In this document: in pieces, positions 3,335 to 20,028 of the stretch | Layout: each line of letters starts with the position of its first letter | Numbering within the stretch: position 1 is the first letter of the stretch | DNA from: Nanobdellota archaeon | GTDB taxonomy: Archaea > Nanobdellota > Nanobdellia > Pacearchaeales > GW2011-AR1 | Reading direction: 5' to 3' | NCBI GenBank assembly: GCA_020430505.1 | Contig: JAGQJT010000004.1 | Span: forward strand, 576-64,575 | DNA length: 64,000 nucleotides | Notes under the pieces: generated by a model | Databases searched by the model: none | Seen by the model: the letters and a program-made list of their open reading frames with translations, nothing else | Told to the model about the DNA's origin: nothing | Made by a program: the position numbers and the translations under genes

Positions 3335-4844
3335 TATATTTTGGATTAATTCCTGAAAATCGTTTTATTTCAGAATACTCTTTATTTCCTATCTTTCTCA
3401 TTGTTAAAAAATTACCTTTAATTATATTTTCTTCGTGCAATTTTGAAAGATGCACTTCTTTTGGAAAATGAAAACAATGCCTAAAGAGAATTGTTAATGC
3501 TGGCTTATTTTTTAAAATCTCTTTTTCCTTGTAAACAGTACGATTACTAGTTAAATGCAATATTTTTTCCGGAGGTAAATCATTAAATGCTTCTTCAACA
3601 ATCCCCACAGAGGTGATTCCCATTGTATCTTGAGATCTATAGAAAAGCAATAAATCTCCTTTATTTATATTTTTGAAAGGAGCTCCGCACAAATAAGCTT
3701 TTTCTATAGTGTTTCCTTCCACAATAAACTCCCCCATATGTTCATTCAAAGTAGTTTGTCTTTTTTTAAAATCTGTAAAAAGTTTTCCATGATAATCTGG
3801 TTTTATTGGAACTATATATTTTGTGCACTTCTTTCCATCATAAAAAGAAGGAAAATAGAAGTGATTTATCATTTTTTGTGAAAACTCTCCAAATTTTGGG
3901 GGGACAATCTTCTTTATGAAAATAGATTCTGCCTTTCCATTTTCATGGATTATTTTGTTTGGGATTTTAAAGAATCCAAATTTAAGTAATAAATTTACGA
4001 GAGGGTCGTTTTTTTCTTCAAAATGTGTAACATAAATCTCATCTATGTTTTCCCCCATTGCCTTACTTATTGATAATTTTAAAAAAAGTTCCCCTATCTT
4101 CTTTCCATTATTTGAAACTTTTAAAGTTCTAATTTTTATTCTTGATCTTTTTGGTAATGGAGGTTTGCATAATTCAGATTCTTCTCCAGGATTTTCTTTT
4201 TTTAACATCAAAAATGCCTGAATTTCTCCCTTTCCATCTTCATGGATATAAGCCTTTTCTCCGTTTAAGCATCTTTTTTTGAACCATTTGTCGAATCCCG
4301 CATATTCTTCTTTTAAACTTTTAAAAAACTTCTGTGATAAATAACTAGAATTAAGACTTTTGAATTTTATTGCAGGAGGAGTTAAAATTTTTTTTTCTTC
4401 AGGATACAACTCCAATATTTTCTGGATAAATTCAGAAACTTTTAATACCTTCTCGGAAATTTTAAAGATTTCTGCTTTTTTATGAATCCCTCTATCTTCT
4501 GTTACAAGAAATTCTACACAGTCTGTATAAACTGCATATAAAAGTTCATTATCTACCCTATCATTGTCTTTTCCTCCTTCTTTCCATTTCACCTTTTTTG
4601 AAAAATCTATGGAGAGCTGAAATTTTGGAGAATTCTCTAATAAAGAATAACACTTAATCTTGGATAAAGTACTTTTTTTTCTTTTTTCATCACGATCTCT
4701 ATTTATGTCTGTTATAGATTCTGGATGTAAAAAAGGAAGAATTTTCTTTGAGGAAAGAATTTTTGAAAAGGTTTGAATATCTTCCTTAATTATTTTATCT
4801 CCTTCTCTGTAAATGAAAATATTGGTATCTATCAAAATACGCAT
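3324..4844 (-). CDS. three-domain fusion protein: N-terminal PIN nuclease, central GNAT-like acetyltransferase fold, C-terminal PUA-like (ASCH/EVE-like) module
   Basis: PIN: MRILIDTNIFIYRE plus LVTEDRGI. GNAT-like: IQAFLMLK...IKIRTLKVSNNGKKIGELFLKLSISKA...IYVTHFE...LLLKFGFFKI. The C-terminal ~170 aa are beta-rich (GDLLLFYRSQDTMGITSVGIVEE). Confidence 0.5.
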   Translation of the reverse strand: MRILIDTNIFIYREGDKIIKEDIQTFSKILSSKKILPFLHPESITDINRDRDEKRKKSTLSKIKCYSLLENSPKFQLSIDFSKKVKWKEGGKDNDRVDNELLYAVYTDCVEFLVTEDRGIHKKAEIFKISEKVLKVSEFIQKILELYPEEKKILTPPAIKFKSLNSSYLSQKFFKSLKEEYAGFDKWFKKRCLNGEKAYIHEDGKGEIQAFLMLKKENPGEESELCKPPLPKRSRIKIRTLKVSNNGKKIGELFLKLSISKAMGENIDEIYVTHFEEKNDPLVNLLLKFGFFKIPNKIIHENGKAESIFIKKIVPPKFGEFSQKMINHFYFPSFYDGKKCTKYIVPIKPDYHGKLFTDFKKRQTTLNEHMGEFIVEGNTIEKAYLCGAPFKNINKGDLLLFYRSQDTMGITSVGIVEEAFNDLPPEKILHLTSNRTVYKEKEILKNKPALTILFRHCFHFPKEVHLSKLHEENIIKGNFLTMRKIGNKEYSEIKRFSGINPKYTRQ

Positions 4845-4906
4845 AAAAATACTCTAAATCCTTCATTTTTAACTATTACCATACTCCAGTTTTGCATATA
4901 ATAACC

Positions 4907-4914
4907 TTTAAATA
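4907..4914 (+). promoter_or_regulatory. candidate TATA box (tttaaata) for the ribosomal-protein operon; would give a ~55 nt leader
   Basis: aacctttaaataccc lies in the 150-nt gap upstream of rpl3. There is no TATA at the -21 spacing used by other genes. Confidence 0.3.
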
Positions 4915-4993
4915 CCCCTATTTTCTGTATAAATCATTCCAGGGTAAGTAAAATGATAATTTCCGCGTTATTGAAAAATATATCAAATAACAA

Positions 4994-5941
4994 ATGCCAA
5001 CAAGAAAAGCACCAAGAAAAGGAAGCCTGCAATATTGGCCTCGTAAAAGGGCCTCGAAATTCTTACCTAGAGTAAACTGGGATATAATTTCTGGTTCAAA
5101 TAATTCCTTGAAAGGATTCATCGGTTACAAGGCCGGGATGGTTTCTGGTTTCGTTAAAGATGAGACAGCAGATTCTATGACTAAAGGCAAAAAAATAATC
5201 ATTCCTATGACTGTTATTGAATGCCCTCCAATGAAGATTTTTTCTATTAGATTATACAAAAACGGCAAAGTTGCAAAAGACATTCTTGCTGAAAGTTTAG
5301 ACAAAGAACTAAAGAAAAAAGTCAAACTTCCAAAAGAAAAGAAAAAGTTACCTGAAATCAAGCTTGAAGATTACGACAAAATTTCTGTTATCGCTTACAG
5401 TGTTGTTAAAAAATCTGGTTTAAAGAAAAAACCAGACCTTGCAGAAATTGGATTGAATGGTTCAATTGAAGATCAATGGAATTTCGTTAAGGAAAATATA
5501 AACAAAGAAATTCTTGTTTCTGAAGTATTAAAAAAGGACGAATTGGTCGATGCAAGAGGTTTAACAAAAGGAAAAGGTTTCCAAGGTCCTGTAAAAAGAT
5601 TCGGAATTAAGCTTAGATTCCACAAGACAGAAAAAGGTCGAAGAAAAGTTGGTTCAATCGGTCCGTGGCATCCAGCAAGAGTTACTTTTAGAGTTCCTAT
5701 GGCTGGTCAACTTGGAATGTTCACAAGAGTTGTTTACAACAATAAAATAATCGACGTGAAAAAATCAACTGAAGAGCCAATCAAAAACTTAAAACAATAC
5801 GGAGATGTTAAAGCAGACTATGTTTTGGTGAGAGGTTCAGTGCAAGGGCCTGCAAAAAGACAATTACTTTTAACTCATGCTCTTAGAGAAACTAAAAAGC
5901 AAAAGAAAAAGAATTTCGAATTGTTGGAGGTTAGAAGATGA
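4994..5941 (+). CDS. rpl3: 50S ribosomal protein uL3
   Basis: MPTRKAPRKGSLQYWPRKRA..., GKGFQGPVKRFG, PWHPARV. First position in the canonical archaeal cluster. Confidence 0.95.
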   Translation: MPTRKAPRKGSLQYWPRKRASKFLPRVNWDIISGSNNSLKGFIGYKAGMVSGFVKDETADSMTKGKKIIIPMTVIECPPMKIFSIRLYKNGKVAKDILAESLDKELKKKVKLPKEKKKLPEIKLEDYDKISVIAYSVVKKSGLKKKPDLAEIGLNGSIEDQWNFVKENINKEILVSEVLKKDELVDARGLTKGKGFQGPVKRFGIKLRFHKTEKGRRKVGSIGPWHPARVTFRVPMAGQLGMFTRVVYNNKIIDVKKSTEEPIKNLKQYGDVKADYVLVRGSVQGPAKRQLLLTHALRETKKQKKKNFELLEVRR

Positions 5942-6252
5942 AAACAATAAAAGATTTAATAAGAATTGGTATTGGAGATGGATTGGAAACAGTGTCTTAT
6001 TCTCATTTTACAGTTGTGGGAAAAGATAATGGTCAAATTCAGATGGGGTTTGATGAGGGAACAAACTACTGGATTGGTAGTTTCAATCCAGAAGAAATTC
6101 TTTTTAATGAAGATGACAGAGTAATTGAAGCAAAACCGATTAAAGTATTATTTGGCGTGGAAATCACAGATAATAGATATAAAGAAATTAGGGAAAATCC
6201 GGTTCCATTCTATGATAAATATGTTAAGGAAAATATAAAAAATGAAAACTAA
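5938..6252 (+). CDS. orphan small ORF A (104 aa) inserted between rpl3 and rpl4
   Basis: ATGA overlap with the rpl3 stop (5938-5941). Acidic, no TM segment. Its stop lies inside a copy of the rpl4 start. Confidence 0.6.
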   Translation: MKTIKDLIRIGIGDGLETVSYSHFTVVGKDNGQIQMGFDEGTNYWIGSFNPEEILFNEDDRVIEAKPIKVLFGVEITDNRYKEIRENPVPFYDKYVKENIKNEN

Positions 6253-6316
6253 ACTTTACACTGCCGACGGAAAACAAAAGAAAAAGAATTTCGAATTGTT
6301 GGAGGTTAGAAGATGA
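6237..6316 (+). repeat. duplication scar: copy of the rpl4 5' end (6242..6276 = 6568..6602, 34/35 nt) fused to a copy of the rpl3 3' end (6275..6316 = 5900..5941, 42/42 nt)
   Basis: Direct comparison of the sequence. The fusion reads in frame as the 24-codon mini-ORF MKTKLYTADGKQKKKNFELLEVRR* (6242..6316). Its TGA overlaps the ATG of ORF B. Confidence 0.9.
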
Positions 6317-6564
6317 GAGAAAGAATTCTTTCTTTAAACACAATTGGGAATGCAGAACTCGCTGTAATGAGAGATAAACTATATAACACCTTCGAGAAAT
6401 TTTTTAAGAATTTTTCAGAATTTGTGAATGAAGAAGGATTAGAGAACACTCTTAAAAGAATAAAAAATACATATGAAAGAGTCTCTTCAGTAAATGAAGA
6501 AGCTGGAAAAAGAAACTTATTCTCAAGAAGTCAAAATTTAAATTACATAATTCAACAAAACTAA
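6313..6564 (+). CDS. orphan small ORF B (83 aa) inserted between rpl3 and rpl4
   Basis: ATGA overlap with the chimeric mini-ORF. Ends 3 nt before the rpl4 ATG. Predicted helical and charged. Confidence 0.55.
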   Translation: MRERILSLNTIGNAELAVMRDKLYNTFEKFFKNFSEFVNEEGLENTLKRIKNTYERVSSVNEEAGKRNLFSRSQNLNYIIQQN

Positions 6565-6567
6565 AAA

Positions 6568-7365
6568 ATGAAAACTAAACTATACACTGCCGACGGAAAA
6601 CAAGGAAAAGAAATGACCTTGCCTAGTTTTTTCTCAACGAGAGTTAGAGAAGATTTAATTCAAAAAATAATTGAAGCAAAGAAACAAATTCAACCTTATG
6701 CTCCTTCAGCTGTTGCAGGAAATCAATATTCAGCGTCAGGAAAATTAAACCACAAAAGACACGTTTGGAAATCTCAATATGGTCGAGGAATGTCAAGAAT
6801 TCCAAGAAAGAAAATGTCAAGAAGAGGAACTCAATTCAATTGGGTTGGTGCAACTGTTCCAAACACTAGAGGTGGAAGAAGAGCTCACCCTCCAAAGGCA
6901 ATTTCTATGATTAATACTAATAAAATAAACAAAAAAGAAATGAAACTTGCATTGCAATCTGCTCTTGCAGCAACAGTTCAAGAGAAATACTTAACAAAAA
7001 GATACGAAACTCTTGCTAACGAGAAAATAACAAACTTGCCTTTCATCGTTGAAGCGAAATTCTTAGGATTAAAAACTAAAGAAATGGTTAAAACTTTGAA
7101 AACAATGTTTGGCGAAGCTCTTTCAAAGGTTGCTTTCAAGAAAAAATCAATAAGAGCTGGAATCGGAAAATTGAGAGGAAGAAAATACAAGAAATCTTTA
7201 GGGGTTTTGATTGTTGTTGGAAATGAAGAAAAACTTAAAGTAAAGGAATTCGACGTCGTTAACGCAAACAAACTAAGCATAAACGATTTAGCAAACGGTG
7301 GAGCTGGAAGATTAACAATATATACTGAAAATGCAATTAAAGATTTGGAGGCAAAGTTCAAATGA
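6568..7365 (+). CDS. rpl4: 50S ribosomal protein uL4
   Basis: YGRGMSRIPRKKMSRRG...GGRRAHPPKA; position in the cluster. Confidence 0.95.
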   Translation: MKTKLYTADGKQGKEMTLPSFFSTRVREDLIQKIIEAKKQIQPYAPSAVAGNQYSASGKLNHKRHVWKSQYGRGMSRIPRKKMSRRGTQFNWVGATVPNTRGGRRAHPPKAISMINTNKINKKEMKLALQSALAATVQEKYLTKRYETLANEKITNLPFIVEAKFLGLKTKEMVKTLKTMFGEALSKVAFKKKSIRAGIGKLRGRKYKKSLGVLIVVGNEEKLKVKEFDVVNANKLSINDLANGGAGRLTIYTENAIKDLEAKFK

Positions 7366-7661
7366 AGGGATTAGAAGGAATTAAAGAAATAAAGACTGGA
7401 GAAGACCTACAAAATTTGGAAGTGGGACAAAAAGTTATGATAAATGGAATTTATGAAGAAGTTTACGTTGGGAAAACTAAATCAAATGATTCGAGATTTG
7501 AATTCCATACAACAATTTACATGAAAGAGGGTAAAATGACTGAAAGACAAATTAGATTAATGGGAAACGATGGAAATGTACATGATCAAAAAAAGAAAAA
7601 CATACAAGAAAACAACAGAAAATATAACACGTACCTAAAAATATTGGAGGAAAGCAAATGA
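7362..7661 (+). CDS. orphan small ORF C (99 aa) inserted between rpl4 and rpl23
   Basis: ATGA overlaps at both ends (7362-7365 and 7658-7661). The GGAGG-N-ATGA junction is duplicated (ttggaggcaaagttcaaatga vs ttggaggaaagcaaatga). Confidence 0.6.
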   Translation: MKGLEGIKEIKTGEDLQNLEVGQKVMINGIYEEVYVGKTKSNDSRFEFHTTIYMKEGKMTERQIRLMGNDGNVHDQKKKNIQENNRKYNTYLKILEESK

Positions 7662-7894
7662 AACCAATCGCAACTGAAAAAGCTGTAATGATGATTGAAA
7701 GAGACAACGTTTTGACTTTCCAAGCTCCAATGATTTACACAAAAGAACAAATAAAAAAAGAACTTGAAGATTTATTAAAAATAAAAATCACAAAAATAAG
7801 AACTTTGATAAGAAACAATAAAAAAATGGTTTATGTTAAATTAAAAGGAGACACTTTGGCAATCGACGTTGCAACAAAGTTAGGATTAATGTAA
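7658..7894 (+). CDS. rpl23: 50S ribosomal protein uL23
   Basis: 78 aa; KPIATEKAVMMIERDNVLTF...; position in the cluster. Confidence 0.9.
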   Translation: MKPIATEKAVMMIERDNVLTFQAPMIYTKEQIKKELEDLLKIKITKIRTLIRNNKKMVYVKLKGDTLAIDVATKLGLM

Positions 7895-7895
7895 T

Positions 7896-8135
7896 ATGGG
7901 AAAAACAAAAATAATTGGATTAATTGATGAATACAGAAAAAGTGCAAGAGACATAGATAATAATTTTATGGATCCGGAGAGAAGAGAAGTTCATGAAAGA
8001 GAAGAGAAATTTTACAAACCAAGATTTGCTAAATTGGGCGTTAGCGCATCAATAATTTCAACAATATACGCTTCCAGAAACAACGAAGAAGGAATTGAGG
8101 AAATAAAAGAAAACATAGAGAAATACTTAAACTAA
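7896..8135 (+). CDS. orphan small ORF D (79 aa) inserted between rpl23 and rpl2
   Basis: Starts 1 nt after the rpl23 stop. Its first codons (atgggaaaaacaaaaataatt) are a near copy of the rpl2 start (atgggaaaaagaataatt). Confidence 0.55.
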   Translation: MGKTKIIGLIDEYRKSARDIDNNFMDPERREVHEREEKFYKPRFAKLGVSASIISTIYASRNNEEGIEEIKENIEKYLN

Positions 8136-8136
8136 A

Positions 8137-8835
8137 ATGGGAAAAAGAATAATTCAACAAGCTAGAGGAAAAGGAAGTTCAACTTACAGAGTTAGCAAGA
8201 AAGCTTTCAAATATAGATTGCAATATCCTCCAAGAATGATTGGAACTGCAAAAGTTTTGAAACTTGTTAATTCATCTGCGCATAGCGCACCATTGGCAAA
8301 AGTTCAATTTGAAAAACAAATCTTTTTCATTCCAGCATTTAACGGGATGGTTGAAGGACAGCAAATTCAACTTGGCGGAAAAGAAGTTCAAAAAGGAAAC
8401 ATTATGGCATTGAAAGATCTTCCAGTAAAAACAAGAATTTATTGCATTGAATCAAGACCTGGAGACGGTGGAAGATTCATAAAAACTGGAGGAAGTTTCG
8501 CGACAGTGAACAGAAAGATGGGACAGGAAGTTTTCATTTTAATGCCTTCAAAGAAAGAAAAGAAAATGAATGGAAATTGTAGAGCAATTGTTGGAGAAAT
8601 CGCTGGAAGTGGAAGGGTAGACAAACCTGTATTGAAAGCAGGAAAGAAACATCATATTAAAAAAGCTAAAAGTAAATTATGGCCTAGAACAAGTGCGTTG
8701 AAAGTTAATGCAATCGACCATCCTTTCGGTTCGGGTAGAGGAAAGAACCCTAAGAGTAAGATTGCAAAGAGAAACTCTCCTCCTGGTGCGAAGGTAGGAT
8801 TGTTAAGGCCAAGAAGAACAGGTAAAAGGAAATAA
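8137..8835 (+). CDS. rpl2: 50S ribosomal protein uL2
   Basis: MGKRIIQQARGKGS..., NAIDHPFGSGRGK; position in the cluster. Confidence 0.95.
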   Translation: MGKRIIQQARGKGSSTYRVSKKAFKYRLQYPPRMIGTAKVLKLVNSSAHSAPLAKVQFEKQIFFIPAFNGMVEGQQIQLGGKEVQKGNIMALKDLPVKTRIYCIESRPGDGGRFIKTGGSFATVNRKMGQEVFILMPSKKEKKMNGNCRAIVGEIAGSGRVDKPVLKAGKKHHIKKAKSKLWPRTSALKVNAIDHPFGSGRGKNPKSKIAKRNSPPGAKVGLLRPRRTGKRK

Positions 8836-8836
8836 C

Positions 8837-9142
8837 ATGGAAAAAAATAAATTTTATGATGATGGAAAAAGAAATTTGCTTTATTTGGGAATCACAAAGG
8901 ACATCCTTGAAGAAAAAAACATTCATAAATTCATTTATTATTCTCAATCTTCAGGAGAAGAAACAATGAATAAAATAGAAGTACCCTTAGGAAATATTTT
9001 TGAGAAAGACACAAAAGTGATTATAAATTGGAATAATGTTTTCACATCAATTTCAAGACCAAATGATATTGGCGATAAATTTAAAGAATTAAAAGAAATT
9101 TATGAAAATGCCTTAGAAAGAGAATTGGAGTTAACAAAATGA
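8837..9142 (+). CDS. orphan small ORF E (101 aa) inserted between rpl2 and rps19
   Basis: Starts 1 nt after the rpl2 stop. ATGA overlap with rps19 (9139-9142). Confidence 0.55.
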   Translation: MEKNKFYDDGKRNLLYLGITKDILEEKNIHKFIYYSQSSGEETMNKIEVPLGNIFEKDTKVIINWNNVFTSISRPNDIGDKFKELKEIYENALERELELTK

Positions 9143-9543
9143 CAGAAGTAGAAGTAAGAAAAAAAGAATTCAAATTCCGAGGAAAGACTCTTGAAGAGTT
9201 GAAAAAGTTAGATGTAAGAGAATTTGCAACTCTTTTGAGGTCAAGAGAAAGAAGAACTGTCTTAAGACAATTCCAAGACTTGGAAAATTTTGTTCAAAGA
9301 GCAAAATCAAAAGAGGGAAAGAACAAGAAAATAAGAACTCACAAGAGACATTTGGTAATAGTCCCAGAATTAGTTGGAATGAAAATGCAAGTTTACAATG
9401 GACGAGAATTTGTTAACTTCGAAGTAACTGGAGAAATGCTTGGACACAGATTCGGAGAATTCGCTCCAACTAGGGCAAGAATTAAACATACTAAAGCAGG
9501 TGTTGGAGCAACTAAAGGTTCCAAACACAAGAGTAAGAAATAA
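9139..9543 (+). CDS. rps19: 30S ribosomal protein uS19
   Basis: VYNGREFVNFEVTGEMLGHRFGEFAPTR. Confidence 0.95.
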   Translation: MTEVEVRKKEFKFRGKTLEELKKLDVREFATLLRSRERRTVLRQFQDLENFVQRAKSKEGKNKKIRTHKRHLVIVPELVGMKMQVYNGREFVNFEVTGEMLGHRFGEFAPTRARIKHTKAGVGATKGSKHKSKK

Positions 9544-9545
9544 AA

Positions 9546-10169
9546 ATGACAGAAAAACAATATGCTCCTTCAGCAACAGAAAAGAAAGTAGCTAAGAAAA
9601 CAAAAGCGGCAGCTAAACCAAAAGAAATTCCTAAAGTTGAAAACAAGAAGAAGGAAGAAAAACCTGAGGAGAAAAAGCCTGTTGAAGAAGCAAAGCCCAC
9701 TGAAGAAAAAAAACCAGAAGAGACTCCTAATAAAAAAGAAGAAAAGAAAAAGACAACTCCGAAAATAAAAAAGGACTATGCAGTTGTTAATGGAAAAAAT
9801 ATAAAAGCTTCAACAAAAGATTGCATAGCACTTTGTAGGTTCATAAAATACAAAAAAATCACAGATGCTATTGCTCAACTTGAAGAAGTTGCTCAAATAA
9901 GAAGAGCGGTACCAATGAAGGGAGAAATTCCTCATAGAAAGGGGAGAATAATGTCTGGAAGATTCCCAAAGAATGCCTCAAAAGAGTTCATAGTTTTATT
10001 GAAAAGCCTTCAAGGAAACGCAAACATGAATGATATCGAGGAACCAATCATAACAGAAGCAATGTCAAATCAAGCTTCAAGACCCTTCGGGAGATTTGGT
10101 TTGAAAAAGAAAAGAAGCCATGTTAAAATTGTGGCTAGAAATAAAGAAAAGATAAAAAAGAAAAAATAA
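9546..10169 (+). CDS. rpl22: 50S ribosomal protein uL22 with a ~75 aa Lys/Glu/Pro-rich N-terminal extension
   Basis: The core starts around YAVVNGKNIKASTKDCIALCRFI. The N-terminus is AKKTKAAAKPKEIPKVENKKKEEKPEEKKPVEEAKPTEEKKPEE. Confidence 0.9.
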   Translation: MTEKQYAPSATEKKVAKKTKAAAKPKEIPKVENKKKEEKPEEKKPVEEAKPTEEKKPEETPNKKEEKKKTTPKIKKDYAVVNGKNIKASTKDCIALCRFIKYKKITDAIAQLEEVAQIRRAVPMKGEIPHRKGRIMSGRFPKNASKEFIVLLKSLQGNANMNDIEEPIITEAMSNQASRPFGRFGLKKKRSHVKIVARNKEKIKKKK

Positions 10170-10170
10170 A

Positions 10171-10842
10171 ATGGAAGAAAGAAAAACAATCAAGTTCAAG
10201 AAAGACGAATTCTCCATGAGAGAAAGAGTAAAAAATGAAATTGGAAAAGGAAAAGTTTCCAAGGTTAAAATTGAATACACTCCTGTTGGAGAAAAAATAA
10301 CCATTTCAACTCACAAACCAGGATTAGTTATTGGTAGAGGAGGAGAAAAAATAAATGAATTAACAACTATTTTGAAAAAAGAATTTTCATTAGAAAATCC
10401 TCACATTGAAATTGATGAAATTTTATACCCCGAATTAGATGCCCAATTAGTTGCAGATGACATTGCATTAGGCCTGGAGAGATTCGGTCCTTTGAAATTC
10501 AAAGTGCTTGCATACAGAGCTCTTCAAAGAATTATGAAAGCTGGTGCGCTAGGAACAGAAATAAGATTAAGTGGAAAACTTCCCAGTTCAAGAGCAAGAA
10601 CATGGAGGTTCGCTCAAGGATATTTGAAAAAAACTGGAGACAGTGCAAAAGTTGTTGATAGAGCACAATCAACTGCACAAACAAAACCTGGAGTTGTGGG
10701 AATAAAAGTAAGTATCCTTAAACCAGATGCAGTTTTGAAAGATAGAATTAAAATTGACGAAAAATTATTGGAAAAGATTAAATCCAATATTGAAGAAATG
10801 GAAAATCCTATTAAAAAAACAAAGAAAAGGAGTAGCAAATGA
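10171..10842 (+). CDS. rps3: 30S ribosomal protein uS3
   Basis: KH-domain region ISTHKPGLVIGRGGEKI; position in the cluster. Confidence 0.95.
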   Translation: MEERKTIKFKKDEFSMRERVKNEIGKGKVSKVKIEYTPVGEKITISTHKPGLVIGRGGEKINELTTILKKEFSLENPHIEIDEILYPELDAQLVADDIALGLERFGPLKFKVLAYRALQRIMKAGALGTEIRLSGKLPSSRARTWRFAQGYLKKTGDSAKVVDRAQSTAQTKPGVVGIKVSILKPDAVLKDRIKIDEKLLEKIKSNIEEMENPIKKTKKRSSK

Positions 10843-11033
10843 AAATAAAAGAAATAAAGAACATGGGGCAACCAGAGAAAGAAAAAAAATTGAAAGAGCT
10901 AAAAGTGGAACTTTTAAAATCAAAAGCGGGAGCATCGAAAACAGGGAGCTCAAAAATAAAAGAAATAAAAAAAACAATAGCCAGAATAAAGACAATTCAA
11001 GTTTCAGAGAAAAAAATGGAGGAAAAAAAGTAA
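10839..11033 (+). CDS. rpl29: 50S ribosomal protein uL29
   Basis: 64 aa; KELKVELLKSKA...IKEIKKTIARI; ATGA coupling. Confidence 0.9.
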   Translation: MKIKEIKNMGQPEKEKKLKELKVELLKSKAGASKTGSSKIKEIKKTIARIKTIQVSEKKMEEKK

Positions 11034-11333
11034 ATGGAAATTTGCCCAAAGTGTGGATTGCCTGAGCAAGCGTGTGTATGTGAACAAATAACAAAAAGCA
11101 CTCAAAAAATAAATATAAAACAAGAAAAGAAAAGATATGGAAAAATAATGACAGTGATAACAGGATTCGACAAAGGAATAAATGTTAAAAAAATCGCTAA
11201 GGAACTAAAAAATGAACTTGCTTGCGGAGGAACATCCAAAGACGATTCAATAGAATTACAAGGAGATCATAGTAAAAAGATAAAGGAAATTTTAATTAAA
11301 TTAGGATTCGATGAAGAATCAATAAGTGAATAA
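11034..11333 (+). CDS. translation initiation factor SUI1 / aIF1
   Basis: N-terminal Zn knuckle [14 protein letters not shown] followed by the SUI1 fold ([13 protein letters not shown]...ELACGGT). Confidence 0.85.
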
Positions 11334-11667
11334 AATGGCAAAAAAAACAACAACAGAAAAGATAGAATGCAACGATAGAGACTGCCCTATGCATGGAAGA
11401 CTCAAGACTAGAGGAAAAACTTTCAAAGGGTTTGTTATCTCAAAAGGTCAAAGAAGAGTTGCGATTGAATTCGAAAGAATGATTTATGTTAAAAAATATG
11501 AGAGATACACTCAATCAAAAGTAAAAATACATGCAAGATTACCTGATTGTTTGAGAAAGGATATCAATATTGGAGATTTCATAACTGTAAAGGAATGTAG
11601 GCCTCTAAGTAAGATTATCCATTTCGTGGTAGTAGGAAAATTAAAGGATGCGGAGGAAATCAAATGA
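11326..11667 (+). CDS. rps17: 30S ribosomal protein uS17 (likely true start ATG 11335)
   Basis: [20 protein letters not shown]...VKECRPLSK. Confidence 0.9.
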
Positions 11668-12065
11668 AAGCAGTAAGTGCTAGAGCGACAGCAGGAATAA
11701 ACCTTGGTGCAAAGATGATTGCAGCAGATAACAGTGGTGCAAAAATAGTGAGAGTTGTTTCAGTTAAAAGAGCTAAAGGAAAAAAAGCAAGACAAGTTTA
11801 TGGAAAAATTGGAGACCACGTTAAAGTGAGTGTTAAGAAAGGAATTCCGGATATGAAAGGAAAAGTTTTCGACGCTGTTTTAGTTAGACAGAAAAAACCT
11901 TGGAGAAGACTAACTGGAGAAAGGATTGCATTTGAAGACAATGCAGTAGCAATTTTAAAAGATGAAAAAGGAAATCCAAAAGGAACACAAATCAAAGGAC
12001 CAATTGCAAAGGAGATAATGGAGCGATGGCCATCAGTTGCCAAAATAGCTTCAAATGTATATTAA
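11664..12065 (+). CDS. rpl14: 50S ribosomal protein uL14
   Basis: ADNSGAKIVRVVSV...; position in the cluster. Confidence 0.95.
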   Translation: MKAVSARATAGINLGAKMIAADNSGAKIVRVVSVKRAKGKKARQVYGKIGDHVKVSVKKGIPDMKGKVFDAVLVRQKKPWRRLTGERIAFEDNAVAILKDEKGNPKGTQIKGPIAKEIMERWPSVAKIASNVY

Positions 12066-12474
12066 AATGAAAACGTTCAGCAAAAAATGGAAAGCGAGCA
12101 AGAATCCTTCGAAGAAAAGGAAATACGAAGCTAAAGCTCCATTGCATTTGAAAAGAAAATTGTTATCAGCAAACCTTTCAAAAGAATTAAGAAAAAAACA
12201 AGGAAGAAGAAACATTGAGCTTAAAAAAGACGATAAAGTGAAAATTATGAGGGGGAAGTACAAAGGAAAGACTGGAAAAGTTATAGAAATAAAGACGAAA
12301 CTCTTAAAAGTGTATATTGAAAATATTCAAGTAAAGAAGCTTGATGGTTCAAAGGCAAATGTTCCTATAAAACCTTCAAACTTGCAAATTATTGAATTAA
12401 ACACAGACGACAAAAGAAGATTCAAAAGATCTGAGACCAAAACCGAAGAAAAAACAAAGGAGAATAAAAAATGA
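12055..12474 (+). CDS. rpl24: 50S ribosomal protein uL24
   Basis: KOW motif KVKIMRGKYKGKTGKVIEI. Confidence 0.9.
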   Translation: MYIKMKTFSKKWKASKNPSKKRKYEAKAPLHLKRKLLSANLSKELRKKQGRRNIELKKDDKVKIMRGKYKGKTGKVIEIKTKLLKVYIENIQVKKLDGSKANVPIKPSNLQIIELNTDDKRRFKRSETKTEEKTKENKK

Positions 12475-13112
12475 GCCACTCAAAAATAAATGCAACACCA
12501 AAAACTTGGCCAATTCCAAGAAAAGGGAAAACTTTCATAGTAAATCCTAAATCAACAGGAATCCCGTTGATAGTTATCATGAGGGATATTTTGAATTTAG
12601 TTGGAACAAGAAAAGAACTTAAAAGGATAATTCATGAAAAAAACATAACAGTTTCAGGAAAAGAAGTTTATGATGAAAAGAAAAATATAGAACTTTTTGA
12701 CACGATTTCTCTTAAGCCTTTAAAGAAAAGTTACAGGTTGACTTTTGATGAAAAAGGAAAATACTCTTTAGAAGAAATAAAAGATTCTGACGCACTTTCA
12801 AAAATTTCAAAGATTGTTAATAAAAAAACTCTTAAGAAAAAGAAATCTCAGATTAACTTATTTGATGGAAGAAATTATTTGACTGACCAAAAGGTTTCTG
12901 TTAACGATTCTGTTTTAATCGATTTGAAAGGACATTCAATAAAGAAAGTTCTACCATTCAAAGAAAAAGCAAATGTCTTAGTTATTGGAGGAAAACACAC
13001 AGGTAAAATCGGAACTGTTGAAAAAATAAATAATGAACTAAAAATGGCAGAAATAAAGACTAAACAAGGAAAATTTAATGTTTTAATTAAACAACTTATG
13101 GTGACAGAATGA
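12471..13112 (+). CDS. rps4e: 30S ribosomal protein eS4
   Basis: WPIPRKGKTFIVNP...; position between L24 and L5. Confidence 0.9.
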   Translation: MSHSKINATPKTWPIPRKGKTFIVNPKSTGIPLIVIMRDILNLVGTRKELKRIIHEKNITVSGKEVYDEKKNIELFDTISLKPLKKSYRLTFDEKGKYSLEEIKDSDALSKISKIVNKKTLKKKKSQINLFDGRNYLTDQKVSVNDSVLIDLKGHSIKKVLPFKEKANVLVIGGKHTGKIGTVEKINNELKMAEIKTKQGKFNVLIKQLMVTE

Positions 13113-13609
13113 AAGATAATTTAATGAGAAAAGTAAAAATTGAGAAAGTCGTTCTTAGTGTTAGCGGAGTTAATGAATATCTTGAAAGAGGATTCAAACT
13201 TTTGAAATTTTTAACTAAAGAAAAACCTGCAAAGACTTTCGCGAGAAAAAGAATTCCTTCCTTGGGCGTTAGACCAGGATTAGAAATCGGAGCAGTAGTT
13301 ACTATAAGAAAAAACCCAGAAGAATTATTAAGAAAGCTTCTTGGAGCTATTGAAAATACTCTTAAGAAAAAGCAAATTAGTAACAATAACTTTTCATTTG
13401 GAATAAAAGAGTATATTGAAATTCCTGGACTTGAATACCAAAGAGATATCGGAATCATGGGATTGGATGTAACTGTAGTCTTCAAGAGAAGCGGTAGAAG
13501 AGTTGGATTGAGAAAGATCAAAAAAGGAAAAGTCCCTGAAAGACAAAGAATTCCAAAAGAAGAAATAATTAAATTTATGGAGGAGAACTTTAAAACAGTT
13601 TTCAAATAA
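13109..13609 (+). CDS. rpl5: 50S ribosomal protein uL5
   Basis: [28 protein letters not shown]. Confidence 0.95.
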
Positions 13610-13610
13610 G

Positions 13611-13841
13611 ATGACAGCAAGCGATTGGAAAAAAGTGTTTAAGCAACTTGATTCAAAGCCGGAGGTTAAGGAAAAATTCATAAAACATTGCAAACCAAAA
13701 GACAGAAAGATTGGAATTTCAGCAAAAAAATGTGAAAGATGCGGAAGGTTTGGAGCACACATAAAGACATACGGAATCAATCTTTGTAGACATTGTTTCA
13801 GAGAAGTAGCGGAGGAAATTGGATTTAAAAAATATAGTTAA
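13611..13841 (+). CDS. rps14: 30S ribosomal protein uS14 (zinc type)
   Basis: [25 protein letters not shown]. Confidence 0.9.
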
Positions 13842-13876
13842 AATGAAAGTCAAAATAAATTTCAGGAGGATAAAAA

Positions 13877-14257
13877 ATGTCGCATGATGTAGTAGCAGAT
13901 GCTCTAAACATGATTAGAAATGCCAAGAAAGCTGGCAAAGAGAACATAAAGATAAGCAGAATATCTAATTTGTTAATAGAAGTTCTTAAGATTATGAAGC
14001 AGAAAGGAGCCATAAAGAGATACAAAATTGATCCAAAAGAAAAATCTATCGATATAACTATTGGAGACTTAACAGAATGCAAATCAGTTAAACCTAGATT
14101 TAGTGCAAAACAAGATCAAGTTGAATCTTATAGAAGAAGGTATTTGCCTTCTAGAAATCTTGGAACTCTTATTATCTCAACAAACAAAGGCTTGATGACT
14201 CATGAAGAAGCTCAAGAAGAAAAAATAGGAGGAAGCATTATAGCTTATTTTTATTAA
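13877..14257 (+). CDS. rps8: 30S ribosomal protein uS8
   Basis: DVVADALNMIRNA...; aggagg SD 8 nt upstream. Confidence 0.95.
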   Translation: MSHDVVADALNMIRNAKKAGKENIKISRISNLLIEVLKIMKQKGAIKRYKIDPKEKSIDITIGDLTECKSVKPRFSAKQDQVESYRRRYLPSRNLGTLIISTNKGLMTHEEAQEEKIGGSIIAYFY

Positions 14258-14258
14258 A

Positions 14259-14801
14259 ATGAAAAAAGAATTTTTTAAAGAAGTTGAAATTCCAGAAGGA
14301 GTAGAAGTAAAAAAGGAAGACAACTTGGTCATTGTGAAAGGTCCTGAAGGAGAAAATAAGAAAAAAATGAATTTTGGAAAGCTAGAAGTTAACGTAGGTA
14401 AGGATAAAATAAAACTTGGAAGCAAGAAAGCCACTAAAAAAGAAAAGAAAATGACAAATACTTTAACAGCACATCTTAATAATTTAATTAAAGGAGTTCA
14501 AGAAAAATTCGAATACGAACTGAAGATTTGTTTTGGACACTTTCCTTTCACAGTAAAGATAGAAGGAAACCAAGCCATAGTCAAAAATTTCTTGGGAGAG
14601 AAAGTAGAAAGAAAAGTTAAATTGCCTCAAGGTGCAGAGGTTACAATTGACAAGGACATAATCAAGGTTACTTCATCTAACAAAGAATTAGCTGGGCAAA
14701 CCGCAGCAACATTAGAAAAATCTACTATTGTTAGGGGAAGAGATAAAAGAATTTTTCAAGATGGGATTTATATAACTAAAAAATGTGGAAAGGAAATTTA
14801 A
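14259..14801 (+). CDS. rpl6: 50S ribosomal protein uL6
   Basis: Position and size (180 aa); ...FPFTVKIEGNQAIVKNFLGEK. Confidence 0.9.
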   Translation: MKKEFFKEVEIPEGVEVKKEDNLVIVKGPEGENKKKMNFGKLEVNVGKDKIKLGSKKATKKEKKMTNTLTAHLNNLIKGVQEKFEYELKICFGHFPFTVKIEGNQAIVKNFLGEKVERKVKLPQGAEVTIDKDIIKVTSSNKELAGQTAATLEKSTIVRGRDKRIFQDGIYITKKCGKEI

Positions 14802-15171
14802 AATGAAGAAAAAATTTTTGAAGAGAGATACTGCAAGATTTTCTAAGTTTGGAAAGAGAAGAAAGAAATTGTTATCTTGGAGAAAACCAAAAGGAAGGGA
14901 TAACAAAATGAGAGAAATGAGAAGAGGATATCCTGCAATAGTGAAGATAGGCTACAAAAAAGAAGAACATGTTAAATCAAGAATGATAAACAATGTAAAT
15001 GACTTGAGCAAATTGCAAAAAGGGGAAGTTGCAATTCTTGGTGCCGTTGGTAAAAAGAAGAAATTGGAGATAATTAAAGAAGCAGAAAAAATGAAAATCA
15101 AAATGGAAAACGCAAATAACAAATCTTTTTTGAAGAAAAACGAAAAGAAGGAAGTGGAGGTTAAAAAATGA
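14785..15171 (+). CDS. rpl32e: 50S ribosomal protein eL32
   Basis: WRKPKGRDNKMR motif. Confidence 0.9.
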   Translation: MERKFKMKKKFLKRDTARFSKFGKRRKKLLSWRKPKGRDNKMREMRRGYPAIVKIGYKKEEHVKSRMINNVNDLSKLQKGEVAILGAVGKKKKLEIIKEAEKMKIKMENANNKSFLKKNEKKEVEVKK

Positions 15172-15575
15172 ATTTATCAAGAAAAAAAGCTTTAGCTGCA
15201 AGAACCCTTAGAGTTGGAAAAGAAAAGATTTCATTTGTTCAAGCAAGATTGAATGACATAAAAGAAGCAATAACTAAACAAGATATTCAACAATTAAAAG
15301 CAGAAGGAGCGATAGTTGTAAAAAATCCTTCCGGAAGAAGAAAGAATGCAAAAAAACATAACAAACGATCTACCGGAAACATAAAGAAAAAAGTAAAAAC
15401 AAGAAAGAAAGATTATGTAATAATGACTAGGAAGTTGAGAGCATTTTCATTGGAGCTCTTCAAACAAAACAGAATAAATAAAGAAGAATTGAAAGAAATA
15501 AGAAAAAAGATTAGAAACAGATACTTTAAAAGTAAATCCCATTTGAAATCTTATGTGGAGGTTTTGAAAAAATAA
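15168..15575 (+). CDS. rpl19e: 50S ribosomal protein eL19
   Basis: RKKALAARTLRVGKEKI; very basic. Confidence 0.9.
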   Translation: MNLSRKKALAARTLRVGKEKISFVQARLNDIKEAITKQDIQQLKAEGAIVVKNPSGRRKNAKKHNKRSTGNIKKKVKTRKKDYVIMTRKLRAFSLELFKQNRINKEELKEIRKKIRNRYFKSKSHLKSYVEVLKK

Positions 15576-15576
15576 T

Positions 15577-16098
15577 ATGAAAACTCAAAAGAAAAGAAGA
15601 ATTGAAAGAAAAACAGATTACAAAAGAAGAATGAATTTGCTTAAAGGAAACGTTCCTAGATTAGTTTTTAGAAGAACTAACACAAGATTGCTAGCACAAT
15701 ATGTCTCTAGCGAAGAAGCAAAAGACAAGATCATTTTCGGCGTGGATACAAAAGCATTAATGAACTATGGATGGCCAAAAGAATTTTCCGGAAGTTTAAA
15801 ATCAATTCCTGCCGCATATCTTCTAGGTTATTTGTCTGCTAAGAAAATAAATGATTCAAAACTAGAAATGCCTATAGTAGACTTGGGAATGATAAGAGTT
15901 TTACCAAAAACAAAAGTTTTTGGATTCCTAAAAGGACTTGTAGATGGCGGAGTAAAAACTACTGAAAAATCTGAAAAATTCCCTGAAGAAGAAAGAATTC
16001 AAGGAAAGAATTTAAAAGAAGATTTCTCAAAACACTTTAATGCAATTAAATCAAAAATTGAAAGCGCAGATCTTTCAAAAGTAAAATCAAAGAAATAA
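15577..16098 (+). CDS. rpl18: 50S ribosomal protein uL18
   Basis: RRIERKTDYKRRMNLLKGNVPRLVFRRTN. Confidence 0.9.
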   Translation: MKTQKKRRIERKTDYKRRMNLLKGNVPRLVFRRTNTRLLAQYVSSEEAKDKIIFGVDTKALMNYGWPKEFSGSLKSIPAAYLLGYLSAKKINDSKLEMPIVDLGMIRVLPKTKVFGFLKGLVDGGVKTTEKSEKFPEEERIQGKNLKEDFSKHFNAIKSKIESADLSKVKSKK

Positions 16099-16099
16099 A

Positions 16100-17891: not shown

Positions 17892-18128
17892 ATGAGTGAA
17901 CTAACTACAAATCAACTGATCAAAATAATCGTAGGTTTCTTTGTGGTTGCTGTAGTAATCCTAGGAGTATACTTAATTTTTCAAAACAAAATCTTAACAT
18001 TTTTTCAAGTAGAAGAGCATATTGAAAATAATGATTCTTCTCAAGATAATTCTATTCAAATAAATCAAACCCCAAATTCCTCACAAAAACCTCAAATAAA
18101 TTTAGTTCCAATTGACGTAAAGACATGA
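17892..18128 (+). CDS. small single-pass membrane protein
   Basis: 78 aa; TM helix IKIIVGFFVVAVVILGVYLIF; ATGA-coupled to the next gene. Confidence 0.5.
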   Translation: MSELTTNQLIKIIVGFFVVAVVILGVYLIFQNKILTFFQVEEHIENNDSSQDNSIQINQTPNSSQKPQINLVPIDVKT

Positions 18129-19417
18129 AAAAAATAATTTTTGTTTTCATTTTCCTTATAATTTTTTCCAATATTGTAAGTGCAGGAGATATTTTTAGGA
18201 GTTTCCAAATTGACCCAGGTTCTCCTTTTCAGAATGTGGAAAATTTAAGTGGAATTAGAGAGATTCAATATGAATTATTTGAAAAGGAAAACGTTAATAT
18301 AAATGTTTATTTCCCTTCTGAAAAAAAGGCAAAAGAAAATGGTTATGATGGGGAAAGGCTTGCTAGAGACGCTTTTTCTAGAGCAGATTTAAACCATATT
18401 GCAACACCCTCTTTGAATTTAATAATTGTGGTTTGGGAAGATGAGTCTGGAAATGCCCACATAGATGTAGGATATGCAAAAGATTGTGGTTGGACTGAAA
18501 AAGGTTTATTTTTATTGACATCTCATCTCCTAGATAGAGAAGACCTAACCTCCTTTGAATTTTGGGAGACTATTCTTAAAAAAGTTTCAACTTCCTTAGA
18601 AACTTATAATCTGGATTATCTTAAAAGTTATTGCGAATTTGCAGAGGAACTAAAAGATAAATATGGGTGCAAGTCTTTTTTTCCAGAGTTAGAAGAAAAA
18701 AGAGATTTCTCTTCTAAACCTTACAAAATTGTTTTCATATTTGATGATTACAAACAGGAAGATTTTGAACTTGTTAGAAATAATTTTAAGGAAGTTCTTC
18801 TAGGCTTGAAAAAAAATGATTATTGGAATAAGAATTTTGATAAATTTCAATTTGAATATTTAGATGAACTTTTGTTTAACAATTATTCGGGAGTCGGGAG
18901 TCCTTCTTCAAATGTAGGCATTTCCTATTTAGAATCATATTGCTTGGCAGATAATGTTGCTTTCATAGCAAATTCCAGATTTAGATCATTTGCATTGCCC
19001 CCTACTCAAGGGGCAACAGGAAGCGCATATTTTTCTTTTCCTTTTGTAGAAAAAGACTATTGGATAGGGGATTACTCCTATTTTCTAGAGGATGAAACCT
19101 TACTAGTTCATGAATTTGGGCATTCAGTTTTTTGCCTGAGAGATGAATATACCGAAGAAGGGAGAGGAAATTTCTCTAGGCCCCCAAATTGCGCTAGCAA
19201 TCTCGAAGAAGCATTTGATTTTTGGGGAACTTTAATAGGAAGAGGAGAAGATAATTTATTTATCAAGATTTGGCCAGGATGTTCATATATAGAGGAAAAT
19301 ATTCGTCCAACATATAATTCTGTTATGAGAGAACATTTTAATGAAATAAATTATGGGATTGTGAATGAAAGATGGGCAGATTCCATTTTGAAAGGAGAAG
19401 TAGAATGCATATCCTAG
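18125..19417 (+). CDS. secreted zinc metallopeptidase, M64-like (HEFGHS...DEY)
   Basis: Signal peptide MKKIIFVFIFLIIFSNIVSA. The motif LLVHEFGHSVFCLRDEY matches the HExxHxxxGxxDEY pattern of peptidase family M64. Confidence 0.6.
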   Translation: MKKIIFVFIFLIIFSNIVSAGDIFRSFQIDPGSPFQNVENLSGIREIQYELFEKENVNINVYFPSEKKAKENGYDGERLARDAFSRADLNHIATPSLNLIIVVWEDESGNAHIDVGYAKDCGWTEKGLFLLTSHLLDREDLTSFEFWETILKKVSTSLETYNLDYLKSYCEFAEELKDKYGCKSFFPELEEKRDFSSKPYKIVFIFDDYKQEDFELVRNNFKEVLLGLKKNDYWNKNFDKFQFEYLDELLFNNYSGVGSPSSNVGISYLESYCLADNVAFIANSRFRSFALPPTQGATGSAYFSFPFVEKDYWIGDYSYFLEDETLLVHEFGHSVFCLRDEYTEEGRGNFSRPPNCASNLEEAFDFWGTLIGRGEDNLFIKIWPGCSYIEENIRPTYNSVMREHFNEINYGIVNERWADSILKGEVECIS

Positions 19418-20028
19418 GGATAAATTTTTATAAAAAAGCACTTTGCTTAATCTTTTTCATAATTTTAATTAACTTAGTTTCTGCAAATTACTTGCAACAA
19501 TCGTACCATATTCAAATAGATTATTATGAAGGAAACGTAAGTATTCAAAAAATAGAACTAGTAGAAGGATTTTCAGATAAAGTATCTTCAAATGAGGGAG
19601 AGAGTTATTCTTTAAAAATAATTTCATTTGATGGGGAAGTTTACCGAGATTATCCTTTTAATTTTCCAAGAGAAGTTTTCGTTACTCCTGGACCAGAATG
19701 TTTTGTTGAAGAAGGCATTGTAGATACAGATCTATGTGGAGGGCCCACACATTACCTTTCAAACTTTTCATCAGTTCTACTAAAGATTCCTTTTTCTCCT
19801 GGCGCAAAATCTTTAGAGCTGGTGGATCCATCTGGGAGATTGATCTTAAAAGAAGACCTTTCAAAATTCTCATGTGGAGATTTGATATGCGAAGAACATG
19901 AAACCTATTCTAGTTGTAGGAAAGATTGTTCCTTAAAGGACAACGAATATTTTGAAATTGGAATTGCTCTGGGAATAATAATTTTATTGGGGACCGGGAT
20001 TGGGATTTATCTAAAGAAAAAGAAGTGA
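19405..20028 (+). CDS. secreted protein with a C-terminal membrane anchor (start moved to MHILG...)
   Basis: Signal-like LCLIFFIILINLVSA. Cys-rich C-terminal part, then IGIALGIIILLGTGIGIYLKKKK. Confidence 0.5.
   Translation: MHILGINFYKKALCLIFFIILINLVSANYLQQSYHIQIDYYEGNVSIQKIELVEGFSDKVSSNEGESYSLKIISFDGEVYRDYPFNFPREVFVTPGPECFVEEGIVDTDLCGGPTHYLSNFSSVLLKIPFSPGAKSLELVDPSGRLILKEDLSKFSCGDLICEEHETYSSCRKDCSLKDNEYFEIGIALGIIILLGTGIGIYLKKKK

Follow-up and report, generated by a model that had tools for sequence, protein, structure and literature searches.

The subject of this analysis is the main ribosomal protein (r-protein) operon in a stretch of 64,000 nucleotides (nt), hereafter the window, from a Nanobdellota archaeon (GenBank assembly GCA_020430505.1, contig JAGQJT010000004.1), and in particular five small open reading frames (ORFs), A to E, that lie between the first genes of this operon. 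The order uL3-uL4-uL23-uL2-uS19 is a textbook case of a frozen gene order and serves phylogenomics and binning as a set of markers on a single scaffold. In the window an archaeal S10/spc-type r-protein cluster occupies positions 4994-17828 of the + strand, and the r-protein neighbours uL3, uL4, uL23, uL2 and uS19 were identified by Pfam. The features of this region, with product lengths in amino acids (aa) and isoelectric points (pI), are as follows.

4907..4914, + strand: candidate promoter octamer TTTAAATA, the sole exact TATA-box-like octamer in 4800-9600 (a consensus match only).
4994..5941, + strand: uL3 (Pfam PF00297, E 6e-62); its TGA stop overlaps the start of ORF A (ATGA).
5938..6252, + strand: ORF A, 104 aa, pI 4.8, a putative passenger at uL3/uL4, with GGAGG 8 nt 5' of its ATG.
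6231..6325, + strand: putative recombination scar with copies of the uL4 start and the uL3 end, seen by sequence comparison.
6313..6564, + strand: ORF B, 83 aa, pI 9.1, the second putative passenger at uL3/uL4.
6568..7365, + strand: uL4 (Pfam); its TGA stop overlaps the start of ORF C.
7362..7661, + strand: ORF C, 99 aa, pI 8.8, at uL4/uL23; its 3' end overlaps the uL23 start (ATGA).
7658..7894, + strand: uL23 (Pfam).
7896..8135, + strand: ORF D, 79 aa, pI 5.9, at uL23/uL2, with a 1-nt gap on each side.
8137..8835, + strand: uL2 (Pfam).
8837..9142, + strand: ORF E, 101 aa, pI 5.2, at uL2/uS19; its TGA stop overlaps the uS19 start.
9139..9543, + strand: uS19 (Pfam); the cluster is contiguous from here to uL15.

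An earlier sequence-only reading of the window had described these five ORFs, and the ORF listing bears out that they lie at these positions on the + strand and fill all junctions from uL3 to uS19. The same is true of the spacing, with ATGA overlaps at 5938, 6313, 7362, 7658 and 9139 and 1-3 nt at the remaining borders. The products had been called acidic to neutral, which is right for A, D and E but not for B and C, which are basic. The r-protein genes uL3, uL4, uL23, uL2 and uS19 are all of normal length, and thus A-E are not pieces that were split off from them. In our judgement A-E are probably promoterless in-line passenger genes in the main r-protein operon of a Pacearchaeota-like (GTDB Nanoarchaeota) DPANN archaeon. 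Comparison of related operons shows that this lineage continually gains, loses and replaces such genes, here also called cassettes, at the operon junctions.

The signals around the cassettes are those of the operon. A GGAG(G) motif is found 7-12 nt upstream of about half of the operon starts, including those of A, B, C, uL23 and uS19. The GGAG(G) of uL23 sits within the coding 3' end of C and that of uS19 within the coding 3' end of E, so that C and E themselves encode the motif of the next r-protein gene and the relay to the essential downstream genes is preserved. C-terminal motifs that are shared by junction ORFs are better explained in the same way, by the Shine-Dalgarno (SD) sequence of the next gene being encoded there. 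Two superfamilies that had been suspected by eye among the junction ORFs, one beta-rich with a C-terminal ...LLxEAGL helix and one helical with G-x-D-x-x-x-Y, were given up, as iterative hidden Markov model searches stayed within small families. The TATA-box-like octamer at 4907 lies 87 nt upstream of the uL3 start and is a candidate for the single operon promoter. No exact TATA-box octamer is present in 5000-9600, and so there is none within the cassettes, a result that is indicative only, as archaeal promoters are hard to predict in DNA of 32% GC; no T-run terminators were seen at the cassette ends, which is indicative only in AT-rich DNA. From these two results the cassettes appear, in an indicative sense, promoterless and terminator-less. 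Based on the operon anatomy, the promoter upstream of uL3 would transcribe the entire block, and the passengers would be translated by the same coupling as the r-protein genes, through an ATGA overlap or a 1-3 nt gap and often with a GGAG(G).

The insertions are found far beyond the window. For the survey, 80 species-level metagenome-assembled genomes (MAGs) of Pacearchaeota, Woesearchaeota and Nanoarchaeota were fetched via uL2 (64-73% identical), all junctions from uL3 to uL5 were measured, and a gap of at least 150 nt was taken as an insert. Such gaps occur at uL3/uL4 in 24 of the 73 loci scored, at uL4/uL23 in 19 of 78, at uL23/uL2 in 13 of 80, at uL2/uS19 in 9 of 77, at uS17/uL14 in 11 of 68, at uL14/uL24 in 20 of 66 and at uL22/uS3 in 6 of 76; they are rare or absent at uS19/uL22, uS3/uL29, uL29/SUI1, SUI1/uS17 and eS4/uL5. 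One eS4/uL5 gap (L021:5224-5403) was excluded as a scaffolding artefact, a run of N with duplicated flanks. There are 109 inserts in total, and in 98 of them at least 90% of the gap is taken up by one same-strand ORF that starts with ATG. On the 5' side, 52 of the 109 inserts have a spacing of -4 to the upstream stop and 42 a spacing of +1; on the 3' side, 38 have -4 and 34 have +1 relative to the next start. The insert ORFs have a median length of 100 aa (interquartile range 81-123), 58 being acidic and 51 basic. The window, with its four occupied junctions, ranks among the top eight operons for inserts; two metagenome contigs, L089 and L097, carry five inserts each, and a third such contig, L093, has inserts at uL18/uS5, uS5/uL30, uL30/uL15 and after uL15.

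The sequence-only reading had assumed that the block is contiguous almost without exception and that its invasion in the window is localised. Neither assumption holds in this lineage, where 39 of 64 well-covered related operons carry 1-7 inserts and where uS17/uL14, uL14/uL24, uL22/uS3 and distal spc junctions are affected as well. What is supported is its core, namely that orphan ORFs have repeatedly invaded coupling junctions and have become part of the coupling chain. The observation is therefore confirmed and its interpretation in part, and the phenomenon is more general and more dynamic than was proposed.

When the loci are ranked by concatenated r-protein distance, occupancy is patchy. 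Pairs that are 14-19% apart differ, as with L069, which has no insert, and L034, which has three, or with L017, which is unlike L044; the nearest relatives of the window, L003 and L010 (also L005), have zero inserts. The loci L022 and L036, which are 16% apart, have three occupied junctions in common and homologous ORFs only at uL4/uL23. Such sharing of junctions with mostly unrelated ORFs implies that cassettes are replaced. Most inserts are singletons by blastp and phmmer. In-line coupled inserts are thus common, variable and replaceable in this lineage.

The cargo is also varied. At least 14 related genomes carry a conserved DEDD exonuclease of 197-245 aa (reported also as 205-245 aa) with a Pfam RNase_T match (E 1e-10) and the motifs DIETSG...HNALEDA; it lies between uL4 and uL23, always at this junction and always coupled (L002, L012, L025, L034, L042, L049, L052, L059, L061, L065, L066, L072, L076 and L079; also L090:472-1131). 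Other cargo in relatives includes a haloacid dehalogenase-type (HAD) hydrolase and, by eye, ORFs with transmembrane segments or lipoprotein-like N-termini. Two further observations concern the inserts of relatives. Between uS17 and uL14, L061 (9288-9897) has a tandem pair of paralogous inserts of 107 and 99 aa (phmmer E 1e-8), which looks like a cassette that was duplicated in place. The uL3/uL4 inserts of L022, L097, L004 and L064 share by eye an N-terminal pattern, M(R/K)Y(E/Q)I(D/N)(E/Q)xK..EGM.E, that falls below blastp and phmmer thresholds, and probably more junction families exist than clustering reveals.

The junction between A and B in the window offers a view of how cassettes may be joined. 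Positions 6231-6277 copy the uL4 start region at 6557-6603 (46 of 47 nt; reported also as 94%), and 6271-6325 copy the uL3 3' end plus ATGA at 5896-5950 (91%, 42 nt exact). The structure is [uL3 end]-A-[uL4 start / uL3 end]-B-[uL4], with the join at a short microhomology around CAA. Across it runs a 24-codon mini-ORF, 6242-6316, in which the uL4 N-terminus (MKTKLYTADGKQ) is fused in frame to the uL3 C-terminus (KKKNFELLEVRR, followed by the stop). This mini-ORF overlaps the stop of A, and its end forms the ATGA on the start of B; the overlap at 6313 exists because the 60-nt gap between A and B is filled by the mini-ORF and is not a plain spacer. As the join is in frame, the mini-ORF could form, and it leaves the coupling chain without a break. 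The repeats are nearly identical although A and B are unrelated, which argues against divergence after a tandem duplication. By its sequence, the scar is best read as a recent joining of two distinct cassettes, both flanked by the same junction sequences, and it looks like the product of recombination between two alleles of one junction. A likely route for the cassettes in general would be recombination that uses the highly conserved ends of r-protein genes as homology arms; in the A-B event, two cassettes, each with uL3-end and uL4-start flanks, would have been joined at the short microhomology. A structure of this type is unique to the window when compared with the 109 inserts of the relatives.

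Duplicated flanks such as these could also come from merged strain variants, and in relative L021 duplicated flanks around a run of N are due to scaffolding. It is nevertheless very improbable that we see an artefact, be it that strain variants were mis-assembled or that ORFs were called too freely in AT-rich DNA. The identical uL3-A-scar-B-uL4 structure is present in L001, an independent ENA contig that differs from the window at 11 positions, and this also answers the concern about mis-assembly that accompanied the sequence-only reading. The exact repeats of 42 nt and 21 nt are not both accounted for by a single k-mer overlap, and only ~3-7 nt are shared at the join. C, D and E are each recorded on 2-3 contigs, the same architecture is found in dozens of independent MAGs and metagenome contigs, and the ORFs themselves are far beyond chance (see below). 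We consider the artefact reading to be essentially excluded.

Stop-free runs of at least 90% of the ORF length arise 4 (A), 61 (B), 7 (C), 77 (D) and 4 (E) times per 20,000 shuffles each, and five such ORFs together far exceed chance. All five have a positive codon score in their own frame and negative scores in the other two; the in-frame scores lie below those of r-proteins, and that of B is the lowest of the five. In the NCBI annotation A, C, D and E are the hypothetical proteins KC516_01655/70/80/90 of a Nanoarchaeota MAG, each a singleton in 90% identity clusters. In an exhaustive phmmer search of the concatenated A-E against 1.84 billion representatives, homologues were found for the other four and none for B; a word-indexed protein search with the same concatenation gave no match, which is a sensitivity artefact, since phmmer found homologues. 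By tblastn against 80 related genomes A-E gave no match, the nearest species-level genomes being without these particular families. The reading frames of A, C, D and E are kept in relatives, and sequence comparison shows that these four belong to small conserved families, with homology along the full length for C and D. The ORFs are real, and in our best explanation A-E are genuine small protein-coding genes, with B perhaps an exception; B may be a very young gene, or one that is retained mainly as a translational relay.

The family of C has ~7 known members. It includes three phmmer homologues (E 1e-8 to 1e-23 to P0005 and P0012; 4e-5 to P0019) and one more by profile search. The homologues P0005, P0012, P0019, P0022 and an ORF of L100 are 35-55% identical (alignment A3), and all of them lie at uL4/uL23, in five other genomes; divergent members were found at uS17/uL14 in L076 and L027. 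In the L094-L099 pair uL4 is 84% and C 67% identical, in the L094-L100 pair 73% and 57%, and between the window and L094 67% and 39%. The identity of C thus tracks that of uL4, which fits a long vertical co-inheritance at ~2x the uL4 rate. The uL4 gene of L100 (L100:482-1276, a Logan contig) has an in-frame TAA between …LFELAI and KKAV…, which could be a sequencing error, a pseudogene or a case of recoding. The AlphaFold2 model of C, built from 5 sequences only, has a predicted local distance difference test score (pLDDT) of 85.5 and a predicted template modelling score (pTM) of 0.78, with a beta-rich core and a C-terminal helix. Foldseek gave no significant match for it in PDB and BFVD; its weak top matches are SH3-like translation proteins (aIF5A and bL19; E ~1, template modelling score <0.35), which are not significant.

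The family of D is helical and has ~14 known members, including 11 phmmer homologues (E 1e-14 to 6e-5; 34-48% identity, alignment A1). These are found at uL23/uL2 in L098, L100 and the JGI contig with P0013, a contig that also carries the C homologue P0019, and at uS19/uL22 in L096 and L097. The only member found outside an r-protein operon is in L091 (1446-3471). There it belongs to four tightly spaced small orphan ORFs (106, 113, 83 and 114 aa) that follow a TrmB-like regulator gene immediately, and these may be another coupled operon in which small cassettes collect. The AlphaFold2 model of D (pLDDT 94.9, pTM 0.83) consists of five helices and has no significant Foldseek match in PDB. The best Foldseek E against PDB for C and D is 0.7-1.0, and their family profiles gave nothing below E 0.3 against PDB sequences. 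A has one homologue, P0006, with 46% identity (alignment A5), which is located in an array of small hypothetical ORFs where there are no r-protein genes. E has one homologue, P0014, with 45% identity (alignment A6), between uL30 and uL15 in L093. From these placements it follows that families can change junction, with D seen at three kinds of site and C and E at two each.

The ratio of nonsynonymous to synonymous substitution (dN/dS) by NG86 is 0.45-0.58 for C and 0.34-0.67 for D, and the flanking r-proteins in the same pairs give 0.12-0.23 (for C, the comparators are uL4 at 0.18 in the L094-L099 pair and uL23 at 0.14 in L094-L100); these are crude values from short, AT-biased, partly saturated sequences. 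A scan of metagenomes with uL4 for strain-level relatives gave none above 62% identity. Both C and D are below 1, and together with the structure models this shows that they are compact folded proteins under relaxed purifying selection.

Such values bear on a different view of the junction ORFs, namely that they have no function at the protein level and stay open because the coupled downstream r-protein gene requires translation through the insert. Selection would then act on frame continuity and start/stop geometry and not on the amino-acid sequence. The absence of a homologue and the lowest coding score of B would suit this view, as would the singletons that make up most junction ORFs of the relatives and the extremely regular start/stop geometry; the 24-codon mini-ORF of the scar is a clear case of a purely bridging frame. 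Yet C and D retain 35-67% identity between genomes in which saturation of synonymous sites is far advanced, they have dN/dS values below 1 and their folds are predicted with confidence, while A and E are 45-46% identical to homologues in unrelated contexts. The source of the inserted DNA is left unexplained, as are the inserts that hold whole enzymes. As an account of all five ORFs we find this improbable; it may apply to B, it does describe the scar mini-ORF, and it fails for C and D.

Comparison with known families and systems agrees with the orphan status that the sequence-only reading had given to A-E. None of the five has a match at E <=0.001 in Pfam or NCBIfam or a significant one in PHROGs or PADLOC, C and D have none in PDB, and a profile-profile comparison (hhalign) of A, C and E shows no relationship among them. 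By these searches the five do not belong to any known r-protein or translation factor family. For toxin-antitoxin or anti-phage defence functions A-E have no PADLOC or Pfam match, and the pairing of a defence module is not seen, as the cassettes are single genes between r-protein genes and A and B are unrelated and separated by the scar. Homing endonucleases were rejected, since no GIY-YIG, HNH or LAGLIDADG domain was found in A-E with Pfam and PHROGs; the string GIYEEVYVG in C is not conserved within the C family. A viral origin was rejected as well: relatives of A or D were absent from IMG/VR by pattern scan, the PHROG matches were insignificant and C had no significant BFVD match. A search for attC-like repeats in 5900-9200 gave only five weak AT-rich inverted repeats (12-21 nt, 71-85% complementary), none consistently at cassette ends. 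No integrase is evident beside the operon in the ORF maps, the neighbouring genes having been profile-searched in part. The cassettes therefore appear to lack the defining features of morons (an own promoter and terminator), of integron cassettes (attC) and of homing endonucleases (a nuclease domain).

The sequence-only reading had left two explanations standing, lineage-specific ribosome-associated factors and selfish or accessory cassettes. The evidence leans to accessory, hitchhiking cassettes, on the basis of the patchy occupancy, the replacement between sister genomes, the non-ribosomal cargo and the presence of the A and D families outside r-protein operons. The products of the passengers would be dispensable accessory proteins and not structural ribosomal proteins.

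The other explanation keeps one real argument, which is that members of the C, D and E families turn up again in r-protein operons, at other junctions. It holds that some or all cassettes, especially these three families, are lineage-specific proteins associated with the ribosome or translation (accessory ribosomal proteins, assembly or escort factors, or modulators) which are kept by selection for co-expression. The recurrence amounts to 7 of 9 placements in an operon that is a small fraction of the genome. The inheritance of C together with uL4 across ~35% r-protein divergence speaks for it too, as do the well-folded models of both C and D, and the top fold matches of C are to SH3-like translation proteins, though not significantly. 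Against it, the families are rare (D ~14 and C ~7 members among billions of proteins), the nearest relatives L003, L010 and L005 are without any inserts, unrelated ORFs substitute for each other at one junction, and A, D and E are acidic. Homologues of A and D are also found outside r-protein operons, and the same junctions hold other cargo that is clearly unrelated to the ribosome. As the r-protein next to these families varies, a role as dedicated chaperones is less likely. We regard a ribosome-linked role for these families as a possible but rather unlikely explanation.

The reading of A-E as accessory passengers also has several points that weigh against it. Of nine placements of the A, C, D and E families that appear to be independent, seven fall within r-protein operons, where such an operon makes up ~2% of a genome of this kind (a rough estimate), which random hitchhiking does not predict and which points to a translation-linked function or to junction-targeted insertion. 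Homologous recombination through the flanks explains a change at one junction, not the movement of a family between junctions. The recombination route depends on a single scar, and a general flank or target-site duplication was tried and rejected: insert starts against downstream gene starts score 6.84 and the control 6.36 (of 15 nt), which is marginal, and insert 3' ends against upstream gene ends score 7.58 and the control 7.41, with no general duplication signature among the 109 inserts. In the window the similarity of the C end to the uL4 end (the top score) and of the D start to the uL2 start, where the D start region is an 81% copy, are outliers and not the rule. Coupling, and the near-stoichiometric synthesis with r-proteins that the sequence-only reading had expected, are both deduced from gene geometry, the closest relative that was obtained is only ~73% identical in r-proteins, and the dN/dS values are as crude as said above.

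A more speculative version of the passenger reading can be offered, which we put forward tentatively and do not expect to be right in full. The junctions may be an integrase-free landing platform for a specialised pool of cassette families that are inserted, exchanged and shifted from one junction to another by recombination at stereotyped SD-ATGA sequences, with at least some families (C, D and E) acting on the ribosome or translation. Imprecise deletion would break the translation of essential downstream genes, and the cassettes would thus be hard to lose, or "coupling-trapped".

Beyond the five junctions, the sequence-only reading had called the cluster canonical from uL22 onward. This holds as far as uL15, but not beyond it:

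17892..20028, + strand: three extra genes between uL15 and SecY (ORF maps).

The first encodes 78 aa with a transmembrane helix; the second, of 430 aa, begins like a signal peptide and contains an HEFGH motif, its one weak match being Peptidase_M64 (E 0.003); and the third encodes a membrane-anchored protein of 218 aa. They look like the same insertion phenomenon at the distal end of the operon. Within the cluster, uL22 (9546-10169, 207 aa) has an N-terminal extension of ~75 residues of low complexity, rich in Lys, Glu and Pro, and similar ones are found in L096 and L097. A SUI1/aIF1 gene lies at 11034-11333, between uL29 and uS17, and no RNase P Rpp29-like gene is present at the position of the window where many archaea carry one.

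The junctions of this operon are fluid for small orphan genes in a whole archaeal lineage, which affects synteny-based annotation, quality checks of MAGs and the filtering of "hypothetical proteins" in these genomes. The junctions are also a natural experiment on translational coupling, with more than 100 independent insertions that keep the ATGA or +1 geometry and one in-frame scar. At least two fold-orphan families, C and D, have confident predicted models, and their companionship with r-proteins makes a ribosome-linked role testable. Where genomes are ultra-small and promoters are few, riding on the strongest operon may be a main way for new genes to become expressed and to be kept, and the landing platform, if true, would be a new mode of gene mobility and retention as well as a source of lineage-specific ribosome heterogeneity. 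In the literature searched, whose coverage is incomplete, no description of junction inserts in DPANN r-protein operons was found. What is new is the place: an accessory-gene hotspot or cassette array is known in kind, and here it is found in a very unexpected location.

Among known systems, the cassettes come closest to phage morons, integron cassettes, free-standing homing endonuclease genes and integration hotspots between core genes. Archaeal S10/spc-type operons house genes such as aIF1/SUI1, RNase P Rpp29, SecY and adenylate kinase, which are ancient, near-universal and fixed in position. Like these residents (SUI1 in the window), the cassettes would be co-transcribed with r-protein genes and are tightly packed with them, but inserts of the A-E type are rare, lineage-restricted, variable in position and often absent. 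In prokaryotic chromosomes, integration hotspots flanked by core genes are few intervals in which accessory genes accumulate. The likeness lies in accessory genes between conserved core genes and in a turnover, here putative, by recombination through the flanks; here, however, the intervals are inside one essential polycistronic operon, typically hold one ORF of 80-120 aa, and the coupling geometry is obligatory.

Phage systems provide two further comparisons. Free-standing homing endonuclease genes occur between conserved genes of T4-like phages (intronless homing), and these too are small ORFs between conserved genes, patchy, and spread or replaced through conserved flanks. A-E, in contrast, are of 79-104 aa and without nuclease motifs, so that no cleavage activity can be proposed for them. 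Morons, reportedly described by Hendrix, Juhala and colleagues in lambdoid phages, are said to be extra genes between genes that are adjacent in related phages. They share with the cassettes the small size, the often orphan status, the position between usual neighbours, the patchy occurrence and the varying cargo per slot. Morons are autonomous, with an own promoter and terminator, whereas here neither was detected and the genes are stitched into the coupling chain; the host is an essential cellular operon and not a phage.

With integron cassettes, A-E have in common that they appear promoterless, mostly of a single ORF, in the same orientation, diverse and largely orphan, with an upstream resident promoter and a rapid turnover. 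Unlike those, A-E are without attC-like repeats and are dispersed over many junctions of an essential operon instead of being stacked at one attI, and the insertions keep a precise start/stop coupling. By this comparison, the system that the junction ORFs would most resemble is a promoterless cassette array, but one that is dispersed in an essential, translationally coupled operon.

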